From assembly GCA_965243025.1 (NCBI GenBank), contig CBDETY010000003.1, forward strand, positions 5,792,001 to 5,856,000: DNA of 64,000 nt. Reading direction: 5' to 3'. A program made the position numbers and the translations under genes. Below are positions 12,066 through 20,268 of this stretch, piece after piece (the first letter of the stretch is position 1; every line of letters begins with the position of its first letter). Below the pieces are notes generated by a model. That model had not been told where the DNA came from. It saw only the letters and a list, made by a program, of their open reading frames with translations, and ran no database searches. The stretch comes from Candidatus Latescibacterota bacterium (lineage in GTDB: Bacteria; Latescibacterota; UBA2968; UBA8231).

Positions 12066-12757
12066 TCCGTCCGGCCTCAATCGGCAACCTCGCGGCTCTG
12101 GTCTCTCTCTGCGCGGCCGTGGAGGCCGTCCCTCTCGACAGTCTGAAAGCCGACGCCCGGCGACTGCTTGCACCGCCGCGGCTGCATCTGGTCCTTGCCG
12201 GGATGGCCGTGGGCGGGCTGGCAACCCGCATCGACGACCGGCTGGAATGGGAGCTGCCCGGAGGCGGCATCCCCGGTGCCGCCTTCGATTTCGCCGGGTA
12301 CTACGGTTCTACCGGAAAAACGGCCGCCGCGGGAGCCGTTCTGTGGACCCTGGCCAGATGGCGGGAAGCGGACGGCTTGAGAACCCAGTCCGAGGAGGTG
12401 CTGCGCAGTATCGCCGCTGCCGCCCTCATCGTCGCCCCCCTGAAGCTTGCTACCCGCAGGCGCAGGCCGGACGGGGGCGACAGGCTGTCGTTTCCATCCG
12501 GTCACACAGCAACCGCATTTGCCCTTTCATCCGTTCTCGCCCGTCGCCATGGTTTTCGGATCGGATTGCCGGCGTACGGTTTGGCGGTGCTGGTGCCCGT
12601 GGGGCGCGTCGGTGAAAAAAAACACCACTTTTCCGACGCGGTGGCAGGGGCCTGCATCGGCGCGGCGGCAGGGTGGGCGGTAGGAATCGGCCACGGCAAC
12701 CCCGCCCTGCAGGCCCGATTCGATCCGGCGGGAATGCGGGCCCACTGGGCATTCTGA
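12062..12757 (+). CDS. PAP2-family membrane phosphatase
   Basis: KLATRRRRP, SFPSGHT, R....HHFSD motifs; GTGA overlap with the preceding gene. Confidence 0.85.
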   Translation: MIRPASIGNLAALVSLCAAVEAVPLDSLKADARRLLAPPRLHLVLAGMAVGGLATRIDDRLEWELPGGGIPGAAFDFAGYYGSTGKTAAAGAVLWTLARWREADGLRTQSEEVLRSIAAAALIVAPLKLATRRRRPDGGDRLSFPSGHTATAFALSSVLARRHGFRIGLPAYGLAVLVPVGRVGEKKHHFSDAVAGACIGAAAGWAVGIGHGNPALQARFDPAGMRAHWAF

Positions 12758-12963
12758 ACATCCGGGTCGGGGATTCCCCGATCAACCATCTCGGGACCGT
12801 ACCGTTCTAACTCTGCGGCACCCAAGAGGTTGCAGGCTTCCGGGGGAGCTGGGGCAGGACGGCTGCCGGTTCTGGCCAGGGGTTCTTCAGGGCCATTGAA
12901 GGTCACTTTTTCACGGTCGGCCAAAAGGCAGCGGATTTCTGGGGATTTCACTGCGAATCATAG

Positions 12964-12992
12964 TGGCCGAGAATCGCGATTGTCAGTATGAT
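12964..12992 (+). promoter_or_regulatory. Putative sigma70 promoter for the leader/adhesin transcript
   Basis: TGGCCG-N17-TATGAT followed by AT-rich sequence; weak -35. Confidence 0.35.
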
Positions 12993-13106
12993 TGTACAAA
13001 TTCTTTTTGAACGAAGGCTGCAACAGGCAGGTCTCGACCGGAGTTGGAGACATGAGCCCCTGCCTCCGGGGCCGCACTTCCCTTCTCCATCCACAAGGAG
13101 AACCAA

Positions 13107-13163
13107 ATGACGAACACGATTGTCACCGCATTCCTTGAAATGGGTGGAAGGCAGGATCCTTGA
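13107..13163 (+). CDS. Putative 18-aa leader peptide MTNTIVTAFLEMGGRQDP
   Basis: AAGGAG Shine-Dalgarno 6 nt upstream of ATG; stop codon lies at the loop/3' arm of the terminator-like hairpin. Confidence 0.45.
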   Translation: MTNTIVTAFLEMGGRQDP

Positions 13164-13183
13164 TCCGCCATCCCATTTTTTTT
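13140..13183 (+). terminator. Intrinsic terminator/attenuator hairpin upstream of the repeat array
   Basis: ATGGG..GGC.GGATC-ctt-GATCC.GCC..CCCAT imperfect stem followed by 8 T. Confidence 0.6.
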
Positions 13184-13201
13184 GCTGCAGAGCATACCTG
13201 C

Positions 13202-13619
13202 CCATCCGCGAAGGAAAGGCCCGGAACATTCTGATTGACCACAGAATAATCGCCTGACAACGCAACCATACCATCCGCGAAGGAAGGGCGCCGGAACATT
13301 CTGATCGACCACAGAATCAGCCGCCTGACAACGCAGCCATACCATCCGCGAAGGTAAGGCGCCGGAACATGCTGATTGACCACAGAATTAATCGCGTGAC
13401 AACGCAGCCATACCATCCGCGAAGGAAAGGTGCCGGAACATGCTGATTGACCACAGAATTGATCGCGTGACAACGCAACCATACCATCCGCGAAGGAAAG
13501 GTGCCGGAACATGCTGATTGACCACAGAATTAATCGCGTGACAACGCAACCATACCATCCGCGAAGGAAAGGCGCCGGAACATGCTAATTGACCACAGAA
13601 CCAATCGCGTGACAACGCA
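13202..13619 (+). repeat. Six tandem ~71-bp direct repeats containing the RBS, start codon and first codons of the adhesin
   Basis: Unit CCATCCGCGAAGGAAAGGTGCCGGAACATGCTGATTGACCACAGAATTAATCGCGTGACAACGCAACCATA starts at 13202 (69 bp), 13271, 13342, 13413, 13484 and 13555 (partial); no unique spacers. Confidence 0.95.
13369..13588 (+). other. Chain of three overlapping 25-aa uORFs (13369-13446, 13440-13517, 13511-13588)
   Basis: Each reads MLIDHRI(N/D)RVTTQPYHPRRKGAGTC* and stops inside ATGCTGA/ATGCTAA of the next start. Confidence 0.55.
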
Positions 13620-16600
13620 TCCCGTCCGTGGCGGATGCGCGGCCATAGTCTCCCTGGCCGCCCTGCTCTGTACCTCTTCCTCCTGGGCTCAAATCGGCTT
13701 GAGTCCGTCATTCGGGGACGGGACCGTTCAAAACCAGGTTTATATCGCAGACGCGGCGATCGAGCCGTTGGTGATGCCGGAAGCTTCGGGAGGGGACGGC
13801 GAGCTGGGATACCACGTGCTTCCAGAGCTTCCGGAGGGGTTGGTGTTCGAGAATGTCTCGAGAACCCTGTCGGGGACACCTGTGACCCCCCAGGCCGAGA
13901 CACTCTACGAATTGTTCGCTACCGACGCCGACGGCGATGCGGCCACCGTCTTCTTTTCCATCGAGGTACTCGAAGATCTGATGCCGGGCTTCGCTGAAGA
14001 TGTCGAGGATCGGATCTGGGCGGAAAACCAGGAGATCGAGCCGTTGGTGCTGCCAACGGCGGAGGGCGGCAACGGCGAGCTTTCGTATTCACTGGAGGGA
14101 GAGCTGCCCGAGGGGCTGGAATACGATGCGGCAACCCGGACGGTATCGGGAACCCCTGCAGTTTCCCCGCCCCCGACCGAGTTCACTTGGACAGCCTCCG
14201 ACGTGGACGGAGACTCGGATGAAGTGCGCTTCTACATCTTCGGGTCGGTTGCGGAGGACCTGGTGCCGGACTTCGCCGAAAGGGTCCCGGATCAGGTCTA
14301 CGTCGATGGTTGGCCTATTGAGCCTCTTTCGTTGCCAGATGCCACGGGAGGCACCGACGAGCTGGAATACTCGCTGGAGGGAGAGCTGCCCGAGGGGCTG
14401 GAATACGATGCGGTCACACGGACGATTTCGGGCACCCCTGTCGGGGCCCGGGCCCCCGGCGAGTACACATGGACAGCCACCGACGCCAACGGCGATGCGG
14501 CGGACCTGATCTTTTCCCTGGTGGTGGAAGAGGACGTCAACCCCGAGTTCACCGGAGAAGTGCAGAATCAGACGTGGATCCAGAACTCGGAGATTGCGGT
14601 GCTGAGATTTCCCGGTGCGGAAGGGGGCAACGCGCCGTATGTCTATTCGGTGTCACCTGAGCTTCCGGCGGGGCTGAGCTTCTGGGCAGGCGACCAGACG
14701 ATTTCCGGCACGCCGACGGAGGTCCGGGAACGGACCGTCTATGTGTACCGGGCCGTCGATGCCGACGGGGACCCGGTGGAACTGACTTTCTCACTGGAGG
14801 TGATCGAGGACCTGATGCCCAGCTTCGCCGAAGGTGTGGGGGGGCAGATCTGGACGGAAGATTCCGAAGTCGAGCCGCTGGTTCTGCCGGTGGGTTCGGG
14901 CGGAAACGGCGATTTGACCTACGAGCTCTCTCCGGAACTGGCACAGGGCCTGGTTTTCGATCCGGAGACGCGAACGATCTCGGGAACGCCCGTGGTACCC
15001 AAGGAACGGACCCGCCACGTGTACCGGGTGCTTGACGTCGACGGCGACGCCGCGGTTCTGACCTTCTCGGTGGAGGTTCTGAAGGATCTGATGCCGAGCT
15101 TTCCCGAGGCGGTGCAGAACCAGACCTGGATCCAGGACTCGGAAATCGCGGCCCTGGATTTGCCGGGTGCGGAAGGTGGCAACGGCGCGATCTCCTATTC
15201 GATTACTCCGGAACTTCCCGCGGGGCTGACATTCCGGCTGGGCGACCAGACGATAATGGGAACGCCGACGGAGGTCCAGGAACGGACCCTGTACGTGTAC
15301 CGGGCGGTTGACGCCGACGGAGATCCTGTGGAGACGACCTTCTCGCTGGCGGTGTTGGAAGACCTGATGCCGAGCTTCTCCGAGAGCGTGGAGGCTCAGA
15401 CCTGGACGGAGGATTCCCCCCTTGTCGAGCCGCTCCAGCTGCCGGCAGCGGAAGGGGGCAACGGTGCCTTGTTCTATTCGCTGTCTCCGGAGCTTCCGGA
15501 GGAGATGTCATTCGATGCGAGGACCCGGTTGATTTCAGGCAGGCCGACAGATCCACTTGATGAAACCGAGTACACGTTGACGGCAACCGACGGCGACGGC
15601 GACCCGGTCGATCTGGTCTTCTCGGTGACGGTGCTGGAGGACCTGATGCCGAGTTTCCCGGCAGTGGTTGGGAACCAGCTCTGGACGCAGGATTCGGAGA
15701 TCGAGCCGATCCAGGTTCCGGAGGCCGAGGGCGGCAACCGCGAGCTGGCCTCCATGAGGTATACGCTTACCCCTGAGTTGCCGGCGGGAGTGACGTTCGA
15801 CGCGGAATCGCTGACGATATCGGGCACCCCGGAGAATCCGCAGGATCTGACGCGCTACGTGATCCGGGCGAGAGACGCCGACGGGGACGTGGCGGGATTC
15901 GCGTTTACCGTGAGGGTTCTCGAGGATCTGATGCCGAGCTTCCCCGAAACCGTGGAGGATCAGATCTGGACGCAGGATTCGCCGATCGGGACGCTGGCGC
16001 TTCCGGTGGGCGAGGGGGGCAACGGCGTCGACCAGGTCGAGGGTCTGCTGAGCTATACGCTGTCACCGGACCTTCCGGACGGTCTGATGTTCGAGGGCAC
16101 CCGTCAGCGGATCCGGGGCACGCCGGCGGTGCCGATGGATGAGACGACGTTCACGTACACGGCCACGGACAACGACGGCGACTCGGTGGAGCTGACGTTC
16201 TCGCTGACGGTGCTCGAGGACCTGATGCCGAGCTTCCCGGCAGAGGTCAGGAATCAGCTCTGGACGCAGGATTCGGAGATCGAGCCGATCCAGCTTCCGG
16301 CGGCCGAGGGCGGCAACCGCGAGTTGGCCTCCATGAGGTATACGCTGACCCCTGAACTGCCGGCGGGGGTGACGCTTGACGAGGGGTCGCTGACGATTTC
16401 GGGCACCCCGGAGAACCCGCAGGATCTGACCCGCTACGTGTTCCGTGCGAGGGATGCGGACGGGGACGTGGTGGGGCTGGCGTTCAGCGTGAAGGTGCTG
16501 GAAGACCGGATGCCGAATTACGACGAGGGCGTGGAGGATCAGGTCTGGACGCAGGATTCTCCCGTCAGCCTGGCTCTTCCGGTCGGGATGGACGGCAACG

Positions 16601-19600
16601 GGGTCGACGGCGTCGAGGGCCTGTTGAGTTATACCCTGTCACCGGACCTTCCGGACGGTCTGATGTTCGAGGGCACCCGTCAGCGGATCCGGGGCACGCC
16701 GGCGGTGCCGATGGATGAGACGACGTTCACGTACACGGCCACGGACGACGACGGCGACTCGGTGGAGCTGACCTTCTCGCTGACGGTGCTCGAGGACCTG
16801 ATGCCGAGCTTTCCGTCAGAGGTCCGGAATCAGCTCTGGACGCAGGATTCGGAGATCGAGCCGATCCAGCTTCCGGAGGCCGAGGGCGGCAACCGCGAGC
16901 TGGCCTCCATGAGGTATACGCTGACCCCTGAACTGCCGGCGGGGGTGACGCTTGACGAGGGGTCGCTGACGATATCGGGCACCCCGGAGAACCCGCAGGA
17001 TCTGACCCGCTACGTGTTCCGTGCGAGGGATGCGGACGGGGACGTGGTGGGGCTGGCGTTTACCGTGAAGGTGCTGGAAGACCTGATGCCGAGTTTCGGC
17101 GAGAGCGTGGAGGATCACATCTGGACGCAGGATTCTCCGATCGGGACGCTGGAGCTTCCGGTGGCGGAAGGGGGCAACGGCGTCGACGGCGTCGAGGGTC
17201 TGTTGAGTTATACGCTGTCACCCGACCTTCCGGACGGTCTGATGTTCGAGGGCACCCGTCAGCGGATCCGGGGCACGCCGGCGGTGCCGATGGATGAGAC
17301 GATGTTCACGTACACGGCCACGGACGACGACGGCGACTCGGTCGAGCTGACCTTCTCGCTGACGGTGTTGGAGGACCTGATGCCGAGTTTCCCGTCAGAG
17401 GTCAGGAATCAGCTCTGGACGCAGGATTCGGAGATCGAGCCGATCCAGGTTCCGGAGGCGGAAGGAGGCAACCGTGAGTTGGCCTCCATCAGGTATACGC
17501 TGACCCCCGAGTTGCCGGCGGGGGTGACGTTCGACGATGAGTCGCTGACGATATCGGGCACCCCGGAGGATCCTCAGGATCTGACGCGCTACGTGCTTCG
17601 GGCGATCGACGCGGACGGGGACGTGGTGGGGCTGGCGTTTATGGTGAAGGTGCTGGAAGACCGGATGCCGAGTTTCGACGAGAGCGTGGAGGATCAAATC
17701 TGGACGCAGGATTCTCCGATCGGGACGCTGGAGCTTCCGGTTGCGAAGGACGGCAACGGCGTCGACGGCGTCGAGGGTCTGTTGAGCTATACGCTGTCAC
17801 CGGATCTTCCGGAGGGTCTGGTGTTCGAGGGCACCCGTCAGAGGATCCGGGGTACGCCGGCGGTGCCGATGGATGAGACGACGTTCACGTACACGGCCAC
17901 GGACAACGACGGCGACTCGGTGGAGCTGACCTTCTCGCTGACGGTGTTGGAGGACCTGATGCCGAGCTTCTCGGCAGAGGTCCGGAACCAGGCCTGGACG
18001 CAGGATTCGGAGATCGAGCCGATAGAGCTTCCGCAGGCTTCGGGTGGCAACGTGGAATTGACCGGTGAGTTGACTTATACGCTGACCCCTGAGTTGCCGG
18101 CAGGAGTGACGCTGAATGGCGCGACCATTTCAGGCACCCCGACGGTGGATCAGGAGCTCACCCGTTATGTGTACCGGGCGATTGACGCGGACGGGGACGT
18201 GGCCGGGGTGGCCTTCTGGGTGGTGGTCGCCGAGGACCTGACGCCGGAGTTCACCGAAGGCGTGGAGGACCGCGACTACCTCACCGATCTGGCGATCGCC
18301 GCATGGGTGCTGCCGGAAGCCACCAGCGGCAACGGCCTCCTGGTTTACACGCTGACCCCCGATCTACCGGAGGGTCTGTCGTTCGACCCGCCGTCGCGAA
18401 AGATAACGGGAACCCCGACGGTAGCTCAGGATCGCAGGGAATACACCTATACCGCGACCGATGCCGACGGGGACACAGGTTCGTTGACCTTCGGGCTGAC
18501 CATTACCCTGGCGAAGCCGACGGCGCGGAATCTCCTGCCTGACCTCCAGCTGCTGGCCGGCGGCAATGCGGCCAGTGTCAATGTGGACGGGCTGTTCACT
18601 GGTCAGAAACTGGAATACCAGTTCGAGTCGAACGACACCGATGTCGCCACGGTGCAGTCCGACGGGGCTTCTGCGGTGGTGACGCCGAAGCATGAAGGTT
18701 CGGCGATGGTAACGGTAACGGCGACCAATCCGAGCGGTTCTGTGGCAATCGAATTTTCCGTCGCTGTCAGCACCGCTCCGGAAGAGCGCGCCGTACTCGA
18801 TAACGTCCTCGCCGGTCTGGCGCGGGCGCGGCTGAGCAGTCTGACCGGTGTGATCGGCCGCCGCTTCGAGGCTGGTGCAGCTTCATCCATGAGCGCCTCC
18901 CAGGCTTCCAGGTACGAAGCCAGCCGCCGGGACCTGTGGTTCGACGATCTGGACGCGTCCCTGGGTGGCTCTGGCGGTTATGGCTTTGGCGGTCCCGGGG
19001 ATTCCCACCGGAAGCCGACCTCCAGACTGTGGGGCCGCACCTTTGCGGTGGCGCTCGGAAGCGGTGAAAGTGGCATGGGCGGCGAGTGGGCCGGGGCCGG
19101 TTCTGTTCAGTCCATGTCCGAGTCGTCGTTCAAGGTGCGCTGGAGCCTTTGGGGCGCCGGAGACCAGCAGAGTTTCAGCGGAGGCGAGTCCAACCAGTAC
19201 GAAGGGGACCTGCGCTCGGTGTACGTGGGTCTGGACGGCGAATTCGGGAAACCGTGGCTGGGTGGCAGTCGCTGGCTGAGCGGAGTGTCGGTTGCCAGCA
19301 GCAGCGGTGAAGCCGAGTACGATTTCACCGAGTCCGACATGAGCGGCAGCGGCACCCTTACGACGAGTCTGACGAGCGTTTACCCTTACATGCGGGGCGT
19401 GCTCGCCTCCGGCCTGGAGCTGTGGTCCATCGCCGGGGCAGGCTCCGGCGAGGTGACCAACGAACGGGCCCACCTGGACGGCACAACCGACGAAGGCGAC
19501 CTCACCATGGGGCTGCTGGCGTTGGGTATGCGCAAGCCACTGACGGCTGCGCAGACTCGGCTGACGCTGTTGGGAGATGCTGCACAGGAGTGGCTTTCCG

Positions 19601-20268
19601 CCAACGGCGCGGGTTCGCTTGCCTATAGCCCGGTGTCGTCGGTGCAGCGCGCGCGCATGGGTGTCGAGGTGGCGCGCCGCATGGGCGGCCTGGAACCGTT
19701 CGGCGAGGTGAGCGGCCGTTACGACGGCGGCGACGGGGACGCGGGATCGGGCGTCGAGGTGGCGGCCGGTTCGCGCTACCGCAGCGCCCGCCTCGACCTG
19801 GAGGCGCGGGGCCGCATGCTCGCCATGCACTCGGCCTCGGGCTACAAGGAGACCGGCTTCGGGGCGCGCATCCGGGTGCGGTCGCACGCCGACGGCACCG
19901 GCATGTCGATGTCGCTGTCCCCGCGCTGGGGCCGGGCGGAAGGAAACGGCACCTTGTGGAGAGACCAGGCCCTGCAGCTGAGGAGCGGGGGAGCAGTCGC
20001 TTCCGGACTTCGAGCTCCGGCGCTTGGGGGGGAAATCGGTTACGGTTTCGCCGCGGCGCAAGGTGTGCTGACTCCGACGCTGCAGATGCACCGCAGCGAC
20101 TATGGCAGCACGCGGTTGGGGCTGGCCCTGGGTTACACTCCCACGCCGGCCATGATGCGCGCCTTCGATATATACGGTGCGATGCTTGACCTCGGCATCG
20201 GTCGGGCCGAAAGCCGCGGCTCCGATCCGGAGCACGAAATCCGCATGAGGGGCCGGATGCGGTTGTAA
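13582..20268 (+). CDS. Giant surface adhesin/autotransporter-like protein: signal peptide, about 17 putative-Ig (He_PIG/cadherin-like) repeats, one further Ig-like domain, C-terminal beta-barrel
   Basis: Signal peptide ending SSWA|Q; repeated LPEGLxF...ISGTP...YTATDxDGD...EDLMP; barrel-like C-terminus (WSLWGAGD, YDGGDGDAGSGVEVAAG, LSPRWG). Confidence 0.88.
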   Translation: MLIDHRTNRVTTHPVRGGCAAIVSLAALLCTSSSWAQIGLSPSFGDGTVQNQVYIADAAIEPLVMPEASGGDGELGYHVLPELPEGLVFENVSRTLSGTPVTPQAETLYELFATDADGDAATVFFSIEVLEDLMPGFAEDVEDRIWAENQEIEPLVLPTAEGGNGELSYSLEGELPEGLEYDAATRTVSGTPAVSPPPTEFTWTASDVDGDSDEVRFYIFGSVAEDLVPDFAERVPDQVYVDGWPIEPLSLPDATGGTDELEYSLEGELPEGLEYDAVTRTISGTPVGARAPGEYTWTATDANGDAADLIFSLVVEEDVNPEFTGEVQNQTWIQNSEIAVLRFPGAEGGNAPYVYSVSPELPAGLSFWAGDQTISGTPTEVRERTVYVYRAVDADGDPVELTFSLEVIEDLMPSFAEGVGGQIWTEDSEVEPLVLPVGSGGNGDLTYELSPELAQGLVFDPETRTISGTPVVPKERTRHVYRVLDVDGDAAVLTFSVEVLKDLMPSFPEAVQNQTWIQDSEIAALDLPGAEGGNGAISYSITPELPAGLTFRLGDQTIMGTPTEVQERTLYVYRAVDADGDPVETTFSLAVLEDLMPSFSESVEAQTWTEDSPLVEPLQLPAAEGGNGALFYSLSPELPEEMSFDARTRLISGRPTDPLDETEYTLTATDGDGDPVDLVFSVTVLEDLMPSFPAVVGNQLWTQDSEIEPIQVPEAEGGNRELASMRYTLTPELPAGVTFDAESLTISGTPENPQDLTRYVIRARDADGDVAGFAFTVRVLEDLMPSFPETVEDQIWTQDSPIGTLALPVGEGGNGVDQVEGLLSYTLSPDLPDGLMFEGTRQRIRGTPAVPMDETTFTYTATDNDGDSVELTFSLTVLEDLMPSFPAEVRNQLWTQDSEIEPIQLPAAEGGNRELASMRYTLTPELPAGVTLDEGSLTISGTPENPQDLTRYVFRARDADGDVVGLAFSVKVLEDRMPNYDEGVEDQVWTQDSPVSLALPVGMDGNGVDGVEGLLSYTLSPDLPDGLMFEGTRQRIRGTPAVPMDETTFTYTATDDDGDSVELTFSLTVLEDLMPSFPSEVRNQLWTQDSEIEPIQLPEAEGGNRELASMRYTLTPELPAGVTLDEGSLTISGTPENPQDLTRYVFRARDADGDVVGLAFTVKVLEDLMPSFGESVEDHIWTQDSPIGTLELPVAEGGNGVDGVEGLLSYTLSPDLPDGLMFEGTRQRIRGTPAVPMDETMFTYTATDDDGDSVELTFSLTVLEDLMPSFPSEVRNQLWTQDSEIEPIQVPEAEGGNRELASIRYTLTPELPAGVTFDDESLTISGTPEDPQDLTRYVLRAIDADGDVVGLAFMVKVLEDRMPSFDESVEDQIWTQDSPIGTLELPVAKDGNGVDGVEGLLSYTLSPDLPEGLVFEGTRQRIRGTPAVPMDETTFTYTATDNDGDSVELTFSLTVLEDLMPSFSAEVRNQAWTQDSEIEPIELPQASGGNVELTGELTYTLTPELPAGVTLNGATISGTPTVDQELTRYVYRAIDADGDVAGVAFWVVVAEDLTPEFTEGVEDRDYLTDLAIAAWVLPEATSGNGLLVYTLTPDLPEGLSFDPPSRKITGTPTVAQDRREYTYTATDADGDTGSLTFGLTITLAKPTARNLLPDLQLLAGGNAASVNVDGLFTGQKLEYQFESNDTDVATVQSDGASAVVTPKHEGSAMVTVTATNPSGSVAIEFSVAVSTAPEERAVLDNVLAGLARARLSSLTGVIGRRFEAGAASSMSASQASRYEASRRDLWFDDLDASLGGSGGYGFGGPGDSHRKPTSRLWGRTFAVALGSGESGMGGEWAGAGSVQSMSESSFKVRWSLWGAGDQQSFSGGESNQYEGDLRSVYVGLDGEFGKPWLGGSRWLSGVSVASSSGEAEYDFTESDMSGSGTLTTSLTSVYPYMRGVLASGLELWSIAGAGSGEVTNERAHLDGTTDEGDLTMGLLALGMRKPLTAAQTRLTLLGDAAQEWLSANGAGSLAYSPVSSVQRARMGVEVARRMGGLEPFGEVSGRYDGGDGDAGSGVEVAAGSRYRSARLDLEARGRMLAMHSASGYKETGFGARIRVRSHADGTGMSMSLSPRWGRAEGNGTLWRDQALQLRSGGAVASGLRAPALGGEIGYGFAAAQGVLTPTLQMHRSDYGSTRLGLALGYTPTPAMMRAFDIYGAMLDLGIGRAESRGSDPEHEIRMRGRMRL
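15646..17958 (+). repeat. Four near-identical intragenic 576-579-bp repeats (two Ig domains each)
   Basis: Equivalent ATG codons of EDLMPS at 15646, 16225, 16801, 17380 and 17959; long identical DNA stretches. Confidence 0.92.

Follow-up and report, generated by a model that had tools for sequence, protein, structure and literature searches.

The window analyzed here is a stretch of 64,000 nt from Candidatus Latescibacterota bacterium (contig CBDETY010000003.1, positions 5,792,001 to 5,856,000), which encodes on its plus strand a 2228-aa surface protein (13582..20268) whose start codon lies in the last of six tandem copies of a unit of about 71 bp. This array is probably, although far from certainly, a tolerated lineage-specific minisatellite that disconnected an older start of the gene, with any effects on translation being incidental. 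This view builds on the anatomy of the array, its single-copy ancestry, the open upstream frame found in relatives, the decay of the distal units, and further arrays straddling gene boundaries in the same genome, all of which were observed directly. The position of the transcription start and every statement on translation were deduced from the sequence and are worded accordingly below.

Anatomy of the array

Tandem Repeats Finder (TRF) applied to the window reported the array at 13202-13619 with a period of 71, 5.9 copies, 92% matches and a score of 696. This confirmed the six head-to-tail copies of about 71 bp described in a previous sequence-only reading of the window. Counted from the motif ATCCGCG, the units start at 13204, 13273, 13344, 13415, 13486, and 13557. 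Two details deviate from that reading. Unit 1 (13204..13272) comprises 69 nt due to two 1-nt deletions, and the statement that the upstream copies repeat the ribosome-binding site, the start codon and the first 12 codons of the gene applies to units 3 to 5 only. Units 1 and 2 are decayed and carry ATT at 13228 and 13298, respectively, instead of ATG, and unit 2 (13273..13343) is unlike unit 5 at 9 positions. Unit 3 (13344..13414) has a weakened Shine-Dalgarno sequence, GTAAGG, in front of the ATG at 13369, and units 4 (13415..13485) and 5 (13486..13556) have GAAAGG in front of the ATGs at 13440 and 13511. Unit 6 (13557..13619) is the ancestral copy, with GAAAGG at 13567-13572 separated by a 9-nt spacer from the ATG at 13582. 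All units are on the plus strand.

The upstream ATGs of units 3 to 5 open three upstream open reading frames (uORFs; 13369-13446, 13440-13517, and 13511-13588) of 25 aa each, which read MLIDHRI(N/D)RVTTQPYHPRRKGAGTC up to the stop. In agreement with the sequence-only reading, their stops are located within the ATGCTGA, ATGCTGA, and ATGCTAA of the next start, respectively, resulting in a 7-nt overlap (-7 spacing), and the TAA of the last one overlaps the ATG of the surface protein gene. Each stop is composed of codon 2 (Leu, CTG or CTA) and the A following it. Because of this composition, and because the single unit of a relative (G001, see below) has TAG at the position where a uORF stop overlaps the next start in the array, the overlap requires no design. 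All three forward frames are closed in every unit. Hence, the ATG at 13582 is the only possible start of the long open reading frame (ORF) in this genome, as had been proposed.

A search of the 6.8-Mb, 3-contig genome with the array unit gave 7 matches at E<=10. Two of these were the array itself, and the remaining 5 were chance matches of 15-20 nt with E values of 0.26-5.9. The unit is therefore unique to one locus in this genome.

Logan contigs from the sequencing runs X1, X5, and X6, which belong to three different studies, provided support for the array. Pieces 100% identical to the window at 13256-13390, 13472-13532 (13469-13532 in X6), and 13503-13568 (13503-13569 in X6) were present in all three runs. 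A piece linking unit 6 with the gene (13543-14100) was found in X1 and X5 only, and X1, possibly the source sample of the window's assembly, additionally holds 12700-13284. The depths of the X1 contigs (27, 9, 15.7, 14.5, and 18) correspond to about 9x multiplied by the multiplicities that 31-mers should have in the six-copy reference (3, 1, 1.74, 1.61, and 2), and the lower depths in X5 and X6 agreed only roughly. Since copy-specific junctions are identical in three studies and the X1 depths fit six copies, the array is real and no assembly artefact. Misassembly of reads has a practically negligible probability, also because the units differ from one another, which is not something that assemblers invent. 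The one point in its favor is that among the contigs listed for any run none spans 13391-13471 within the near-identical units 3 to 5. Thus, the exact count of the middle units rests on the assembly and the depth ratios. Copy-number variation within samples was not found: contigs of four runs contained no unit-skipping joints inside the array, a result that rare or low-level variants could escape.

Single-copy ancestry and probable loss of an upstream start

A DNA search of 40 relatives matched only two genomes of the same genus, G001 and G002. Each of them contains a single unit in an equivalent position, in which the ATG and the preceding GGAAAGG are conserved. A protein search of 75 further genomes of the family gave no orthologue outside the genus, G001 and G002 again being the only matches. 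Scanning species-representative genomes added one further relative, L016, a contig of a metagenome-assembled genome (MAG) labelled Candidatus Aminicenantes bacterium. This short-read contig of 5.8x coverage, which is possibly chimeric, has two units identical to units 5 and 6. It is devoid of the segment corresponding to window positions 13032-13482, i.e. the leader ORF and hairpin described below and units 1-4, and this segment occurs nowhere else in that MAG. The copy number thus differs among relatives, as the sequence-only reading had expected, with one unit in G001, one in G002, two in L016 (with the reservation that the contig may be chimeric), and six in the genome of the window (G000). 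Run X5 also contains a contig of a single-unit relative, the loose end of which before 13554 translates as PNLLASEQI of the orthologous protein P0003. Degenerate-pattern scans of public metagenome contigs gave 0 matches and no additional data on copy number.

The units differ unequally from the single unit of G001, unit 6 by 11 differences and units 1-5 by 18-23. Units 4 and 5 are distinguished by 1 difference, unit 3 by the T in its Shine-Dalgarno sequence, and units 1 and 2 share ATT and CGCC. This pattern of differences identifies the distal units as older and decaying and the middle units as recent.

Contigs of a relative from the RNA library X20 cover 12859-13022, 13078-13258, and 13659-14100 with 91-96% identity. 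As they derive from a relative and may include DNA, they indicate neither transcription of the array nor a transcript start. One of them shows 16 differences in 181 nt and runs without gaps through unit 1, including the 1-nt deletion of unit 1 itself. Because this deletion is shared, the array with its decayed unit 1 predates a split of several per cent divergence.

The sequence-only reading treated the array as simply the leader of the gene's own start. The relatives do not bear this out. In G001 and G002 an upstream ATG opens a frame that reaches the conserved Met after 40-41 codons and continues without a stop to the end of each locus (553 codons). This upstream ATG is preceded by a strong Shine-Dalgarno sequence (AAGGAGAAC in G002 and AAAGAGAAC in G001), which is stronger than that of the internal Met, and presumably is the start used in these relatives. 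The same N-terminal extension is carried by P0003 and P0007, two proteins found with the C-terminal domain, whereas P0002 begins at the internal Met. In total, the extension is present in 4 out of 7 orthologues (G001, G002, P0003, and P0007) and missing in 3 (G000, L016, and P0002). The latter three are also nearest to G000 in the C-terminal domain, with identities of 100, 98, and 94%. Among the four carriers the extension differs in length by whole codons only.

In G000 a remnant of this extension can be recognized. The leader ORF at 13107..13163 on the plus strand comprises 18 codons (MTNTIVTAFLEMGGRQDP up to the stop), has AAGGAG at 13095-13100 six nt before its ATG, and corresponds to a truncated form of the 40-41-codon extension of the relatives, the frame being closed by a 1-nt deletion after 13145. 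When frames are followed across this break, the downstream sequence still resembles the relatives' extension. In addition to the deletion in the leader, G000 has the 1-nt deletions in unit 1. The 71-nt unit itself covers the relatives' IPSA(T/K)ERRR(K/N)-M-LIDHR..TT. Because 71 is not a multiple of 3, its duplication shifts the frame and disconnects the upstream start. On comparison of these sequences, the array is best described as a putative frame-breaking duplication inside a former N-terminal extension and not simply as the gene's own leader.

The following course of events seems most likely. Ancestrally, the segment was single, and its ATG would have encoded an internal Met of a frame opening 40-41 codons upstream behind a strong Shine-Dalgarno sequence. 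A 71-bp segment that begins 25 nt ahead of the first base of the conserved ATG and ends 46 nt behind it, when units are counted from ATCCGCG, would then have been tandemly duplicated and finally amplified to six copies. Such a non-triplet duplication would unhook the upstream start, and the 1-nt deletion in the leader would have the same effect. The protein would now be made from the ATG at 13582 in the last unit by means of its own Shine-Dalgarno-like GAAAGG. A duplication spanning the start is one of the few survivable non-triplet kinds, since the gene together with its start is restored by the last copy. The upstream units would accordingly be remnants, with units 3-5 being recent copies that happen to form 25-codon ORFs. 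Ribosomes loading on the upstream ATGs might pass on to the next start through termination-reinitiation or unfolding of the RNA, or they might occlude it. The net effect of these ATGs probably is modest, and a dedicated switch is not to be expected.

A more drastic consequence, namely that loss of the strong upstream start left only weak initiation and that the array is a step toward a pseudogene, is very improbable. The upstream start with AAGGAG at ideal spacing is indeed disconnected in G000, and decay of the region does occur, since contig C7 of G001 has a degenerate, frameshifted partial copy of the 5' end. Yet G000 and P0002 retain a complete long ORF of 2228 aa each, and in L016 its frame stays open over 1366 codons until the contig breaks off, which indicates that the gene is still under selection despite the lost extension. 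Furthermore, the 6-nt Shine-Dalgarno match of the internal ATG and its good spacing are conserved in all genomes. The copy in G001 (C7:10400-11100, minus strand; L011) comprises the 3'-end of a PAP2 gene and the 5'-end of the adhesin gene. Its leader and start region are deleted, its signal peptide is frameshifted, and its ORF ends after ~60 codons.

Several observations weigh against a tolerated minisatellite that displaced an older start. The array is old and has been retained, as the X20 relative shares the deletion in unit 1 and L016 shares units 5 and 6, whereas a neutral tandem repeat would be expected to contract within such a period. Units 5 and 6 are identical at 137 of 137 positions between G000 (13483-13619) and L016 (2970-3106), whereas the 200-nt flanks are only 88.6% and 84.2% identical. 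Possible causes are a recent recombination event, selection acting on the two proximal units, and chimerism of the MAG contig. A general constraint on the unit is unlikely, because the units of G001 and G002 differ in 16 of 74 columns and P0002 differs in the first 12 residues. The identity reduces the value of L016 as an independent line of evidence and makes a functional penultimate unit conceivable. In addition, the special substitutions of units 3-5 (CTA to CTG and CC to TT) strengthen the hairpin predicted around their ATGs, which, as far as folding models go, could be an adaptive silencing of these starts or the set-up of an unfolding-type coupling. Finally, observations on translation of the extension in the relatives point both ways. 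It is suggested by the open frame in four lineages and by length differences of whole codons only, but the GC content at third codon positions (GC3) is 0.49-0.55 in the extension, while the body of the gene has 0.70-0.75. When the extended N-terminus of G001 (117 aa) was scanned against Pfam at E<=5, there was no match to the extended signal peptide region (ESPR) of autotransporters, the only match being an unrelated and weak one to Methyltransf_10 (E 0.15). The extension may therefore be a leader and not coding, in which case 13582 would always have been the start.

Possible functions of the upstream units

The 16S gene ends in ...GGATCACCTCCTTTCT (tail ...CCTCCTTTCT), and its CCUUUC is complementary to the GAAAGG that is found 9 nt before the ATGs of the array (GTAAGG in unit 3). 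The Shine-Dalgarno sequence of the main ATG thus is a 6-nt match. An in-frame GTG at 13609 is GCG in G002. In the fold predicted for each unit, CAUGC and GCGUG form a helix that encloses an inner stem. According to these predictions, the upstream AUGs are unpaired with probabilities of 0.13, 0.12, and 0.05 and the main AUG with a probability of 0.20, in comparison to 0.45 and 0.80 for the AUG of the single unit in G001 and G002, respectively. Folding was not clearly beyond that of shuffled sequences, with z -1.52 for the whole array and z -1.77 for one unit, for which 8 of 200 shuffles were as stable.

The sequence-only reading proposed that copy number tunes the output through a ribosome relay or extra entry sites. 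In such a relay or rheostat, ribosomes would enter at any of the three upstream ATGs, translate 25 codons, stop 7 nt past the next ATG, and restart there or open its hairpin, so that the number of units (1, 2 or 6) would set the output of the surface protein. This is a rather unlikely alternative to an incidental minisatellite. Three consecutive intact uORFs with -7 spacing, each behind GAAAGG or GTAAGG, and the location of every ATG in a predicted hairpin that a ribosome on the preceding ORF would open are in line with it. So are the variation of copy number among relatives and the maintenance of the array across diverged lineages, with units 5 and 6 identical in L016. In a 2025 review (PMC12548453), coupling is described as known at small overlaps, being best at spacings of -4 to +3 and weaker beyond -4 with growing overlap. 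According to a 2026 study on Sinorhizobium meliloti (PMC13285730), upstream ribosome-binding sites, and uORFs that overlap the main ORF, can act on the main site either by coupling or by occlusion. By analogy, the -7 spacing is possibly compatible with either coupling or occlusion.

A number of findings are at odds with a maintained relay. Units 3-5 are near-identical recent copies, so that their intact ORFs say little about selection, and in the older units the ATG is gone. The overlapping stop arises fortuitously from codon 2. The first entry site, the ATG at 13369, has the weakest Shine-Dalgarno sequence. In the predicted folds it is base-paired, and the other upstream ATGs are likewise hidden in hairpins. 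Four orthologous lineages manage with a single unit, the contigs of four runs have no joints skipping units, and similar arrays occur in the same genome at an unrelated gene start and at a gene end. In the manner of a coupled uORF, the last uORF stops close to the main start (-7), which has its own Shine-Dalgarno sequence. In contrast to a coupled uORF, however, single-unit relatives have no out-of-frame uORF and the distal units of G000 lost the ATG.

A stronger version appears less likely still: the symbiont clade would have kept the array after the extension was lost and would have used its growth, from 1 over 2 to 6 units, to dial translation. A hairpin-locked start in each unit would then be opened or fed by translation of the preceding unit, and the unit number would set the level of the giant, host-facing surface protein. 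If the uORF chain did act on translation, it would provide an easily evolved dial for a symbiont surface protein and, in the dial version, a natural, evolvable, and stacked counterpart of the engineered design in which a leader ORF delivers the ribosome, derived from the gene's own start.

Alternatively, the units may act by means other than uORFs. They could, for example, provide repeated binding sites to a regulator or small RNA, multiply a promoter, or space or stabilize a long 5' leader. We regard such a mode of action as improbable. It is favored by TTGACC, a 5/6 match to the -35 box, in every unit, by GGA-rich motifs, and by AATCGCG, which is common to 4 of the 6 units and a block further upstream. 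This block (12957..13004) comprises 48 bp that are invariant in G000, G001, G002, and L016, contains the palindrome AATCGCGATT, and may serve as a promoter or operator in front of the leader. It is partly duplicated in G001. Between the invariant block and the array lies an 8-bp hairpin with one bulged A (13150-13169) followed by T8 (13176-13183). This plus-strand element (13150..13183) overlaps the stop of the leader ORF. Its pair 13154/13166 is G-C in G000 and A-T in G001, G002, and the X20 relative, which amounts to one compensatory double change. The predicted structure could be a terminator or attenuator or a structure within the former coding extension; if it is a terminator, a transcription start further downstream would be needed.

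These features are opposed by negative results. A sigma-70 scan of 12700-13900 gave no plus-strand promoter, the sole match being on the minus strand (12986..12957, CTGACA-18-TATGAT), and a terminator scan gave only terminator-like matches on the minus strand inside units. No Rfam family matched in 12500-14000 at E<=1. The T-run of the hairpin is missing in G002. AATCGCG is missing from the G002 unit and from unit 2, and as a 7-mer chosen post hoc it is not significant by estimate. An AATCGCG operator array (units 3, 5, and 6, overlapping into unit 1) was discarded on these grounds. So was a CsrA sponge or target built on the many GGA motifs, as no CsrA gene was found in the 96%-complete genome, while control genomes scored. 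Sigma-54 and extracytoplasmic function (ECF)-type motifs, for which the unit and the invariant block were inspected by eye, were rejected because the spacing was off by one or the -10 part was lacking in L016.

Comparison with known systems and other arrays

Bacterial minisatellites and variable-number tandem repeats (VNTRs) arise by local tandem duplication and slippage. The array resembles them in its head-to-tail copies, its single-copy progenitor at the orthologous locus of relatives, its near-identical newest copies, and its copy number varying among close relatives. It differs from them in its period, since gene-overlapping arrays mostly have triplet periods and the array of this study is non-triplet and survives by spanning a start codon.

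This distinction is reflected throughout the genome. TRF rows with a period of at least 20 and at least 2.5 copies have periods divisible by 3 in 145 out of 161 cases, and the best-scoring exception is the 71-bp array. Five non-triplet arrays have a period of at least 50 and at least 2.5 copies. Judged by eye from ORFs, without a gene caller, two of these straddle a start codon, one straddles a stop codon, and two look intergenic. The second start-codon array (C3:5213530-5213833, minus strand; L019) consists of 3.0 copies of 103 bp with 92% match at a gene for a PLP-dependent decarboxylase (PF00282). It duplicates AGGAGA, the ATGs, and the first ~11 codons, so that its upstream copies are mini-ORFs of 6-7 codons ended by TAA or TGA. 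The array part had no match in relatives. The stop-codon counterpart (C3:4354810-4355071) consists of 2.8 copies of 92 bp with 98% match and duplicates the last ~23 codons, ending in GKGHAILHG, plus the stop of a minus-strand gene of 664 aa.

Such a distribution fits survivorship: duplications of any length arise, and those overlapping genes persist if they are of triplet length or span a boundary. The rule suggested is that non-triplet arrays touching genes should accumulate at start and stop codons, since an intact copy of the gene is left over at these sites only, and the three best non-triplet arrays of this genome agree with it. A perfect 25-bp x 2 duplication with AGGAG and ATG at C3:25799-25849 possibly is another duplicated start region. 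Moreover, many long coding arrays occur genome-wide, with periods of 126, 72, 99, 129, 354, and 36/63 bp. Repeats of WD40-, LRR-, ankyrin-, NHL-, and collagen-like type typically have such periods, and the arrays may belong to families of this kind.

The sequence-only reading did not recognize the architecture as a described one. However, the mycobacterial interspersed repetitive units (MIRU-VNTR; Supply et al. 1997), as summarized in the 2025 review (PMC12548453), are located at start codons and carry an ORF that is coupled to the gene with -4 spacing. The MIRU repeat is the closest described system. It likewise consists of start-codon repeats tens of bases long, each with a short ORF that ends within the next start, so that translation can pass through to the gene, and its copy number varies among strains. 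According to this summary, MIRUs are dispersed, apparently mobile, and located at many loci. In contrast, the array of G000 occupies one locus, was copied from the gene itself with a single unit as its ancestor, and has an overlap of 7 nt (-7 spacing) in place of -4; it lacks the dispersal that defines MIRUs. In open-access PMC and bioRxiv full texts we found no description of tandem amplification of a bacterial gene's own start region.

Coupling or occlusion by uORFs in bacterial 5' leaders has been reported for iraD (PMC5574718) and for upstream ribosome-binding sites in S. meliloti (PMC13285730), and a synthetic design in which a short ORF delivers the ribosome is known (PMC12548453). These cases share with the array a short ORF that contains the next Shine-Dalgarno sequence and ends on or just past the main start. 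They are single uORFs, conserved or engineered, with measured effects, whereas three stacked and non-conserved uORFs were recognized here from sequence alone.

Another parallel is provided by the 7-bp repeats upstream of the adhesin genes hmw1A and hmw2A of Haemophilus influenzae (PMC2424069, PMC8262952, PMC12721329). In both cases a tandem repeat is located 5' of a large adhesin gene, where its copy number could alter output with the frame left untouched. The hmw repeats, as reported there, are 7-bp units, variable in populations, and act on transcription or processing of the 5'-UTR, unlike the 71-bp unit containing a start site for which no within-sample variation was seen in contigs. Phase-variable simple sequence repeats have units of 1-9 bp and are heterogeneous within populations; with a unit of 71 bp and no skipping joints in the contigs of four runs, in which rare variants are dropped, the array does not fit this class.

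The ESPR (Pfam PF13018) is resembled by the extension of 40-41 aa preceding an ordinary-looking signal peptide of an autotransporter-like protein in 4 of the 7 orthologues. The extension is longer than a usual ESPR, has no match to it, and was lost in G000, L016, and P0002.

Beyond these comparisons, the natural series of 1, 2, and 6 units among close relatives illustrates how a gene can switch its start site: a non-triplet duplication over an internal Met with its own Shine-Dalgarno sequence disconnects the older start, yet the gene survives. It also is a warning for annotation, as gene callers chose different starts for the orthologues.

The protein encoded downstream of the array contains 16 He_PIG (PF05345) stretches. 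By eye, its N-terminus is signal-peptide-like, with a basic n-region and a hydrophobic stretch CAAIVSLAALLC followed by SWA and, after the presumed cleavage site, Q. The C-terminal 488 aa (residues 1741-2228) had no sequence match in Pfam, NCBIfam or PDB. An Atlas feature search assigned this region to autotransporter beta-domain clusters (0.96-0.97) in 27 out of 30 matches, and 14 out of 120 homologues among those listed carry PF03797. Hence "autotransporter-like surface protein" is a reasonable label, and a function as an adhesin is presumed from sequence features. The gene also has internal repeats, with 276-bp units at 14560-15406 of the window and a recurring ACGGCGTCG motif at a spacing of 579 bp. 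A precomputed Pfam list for the protein (P0001, 13582-20268) includes PF28597.1, a family that our Pfam scans did not report and that may describe the C-terminal domain.

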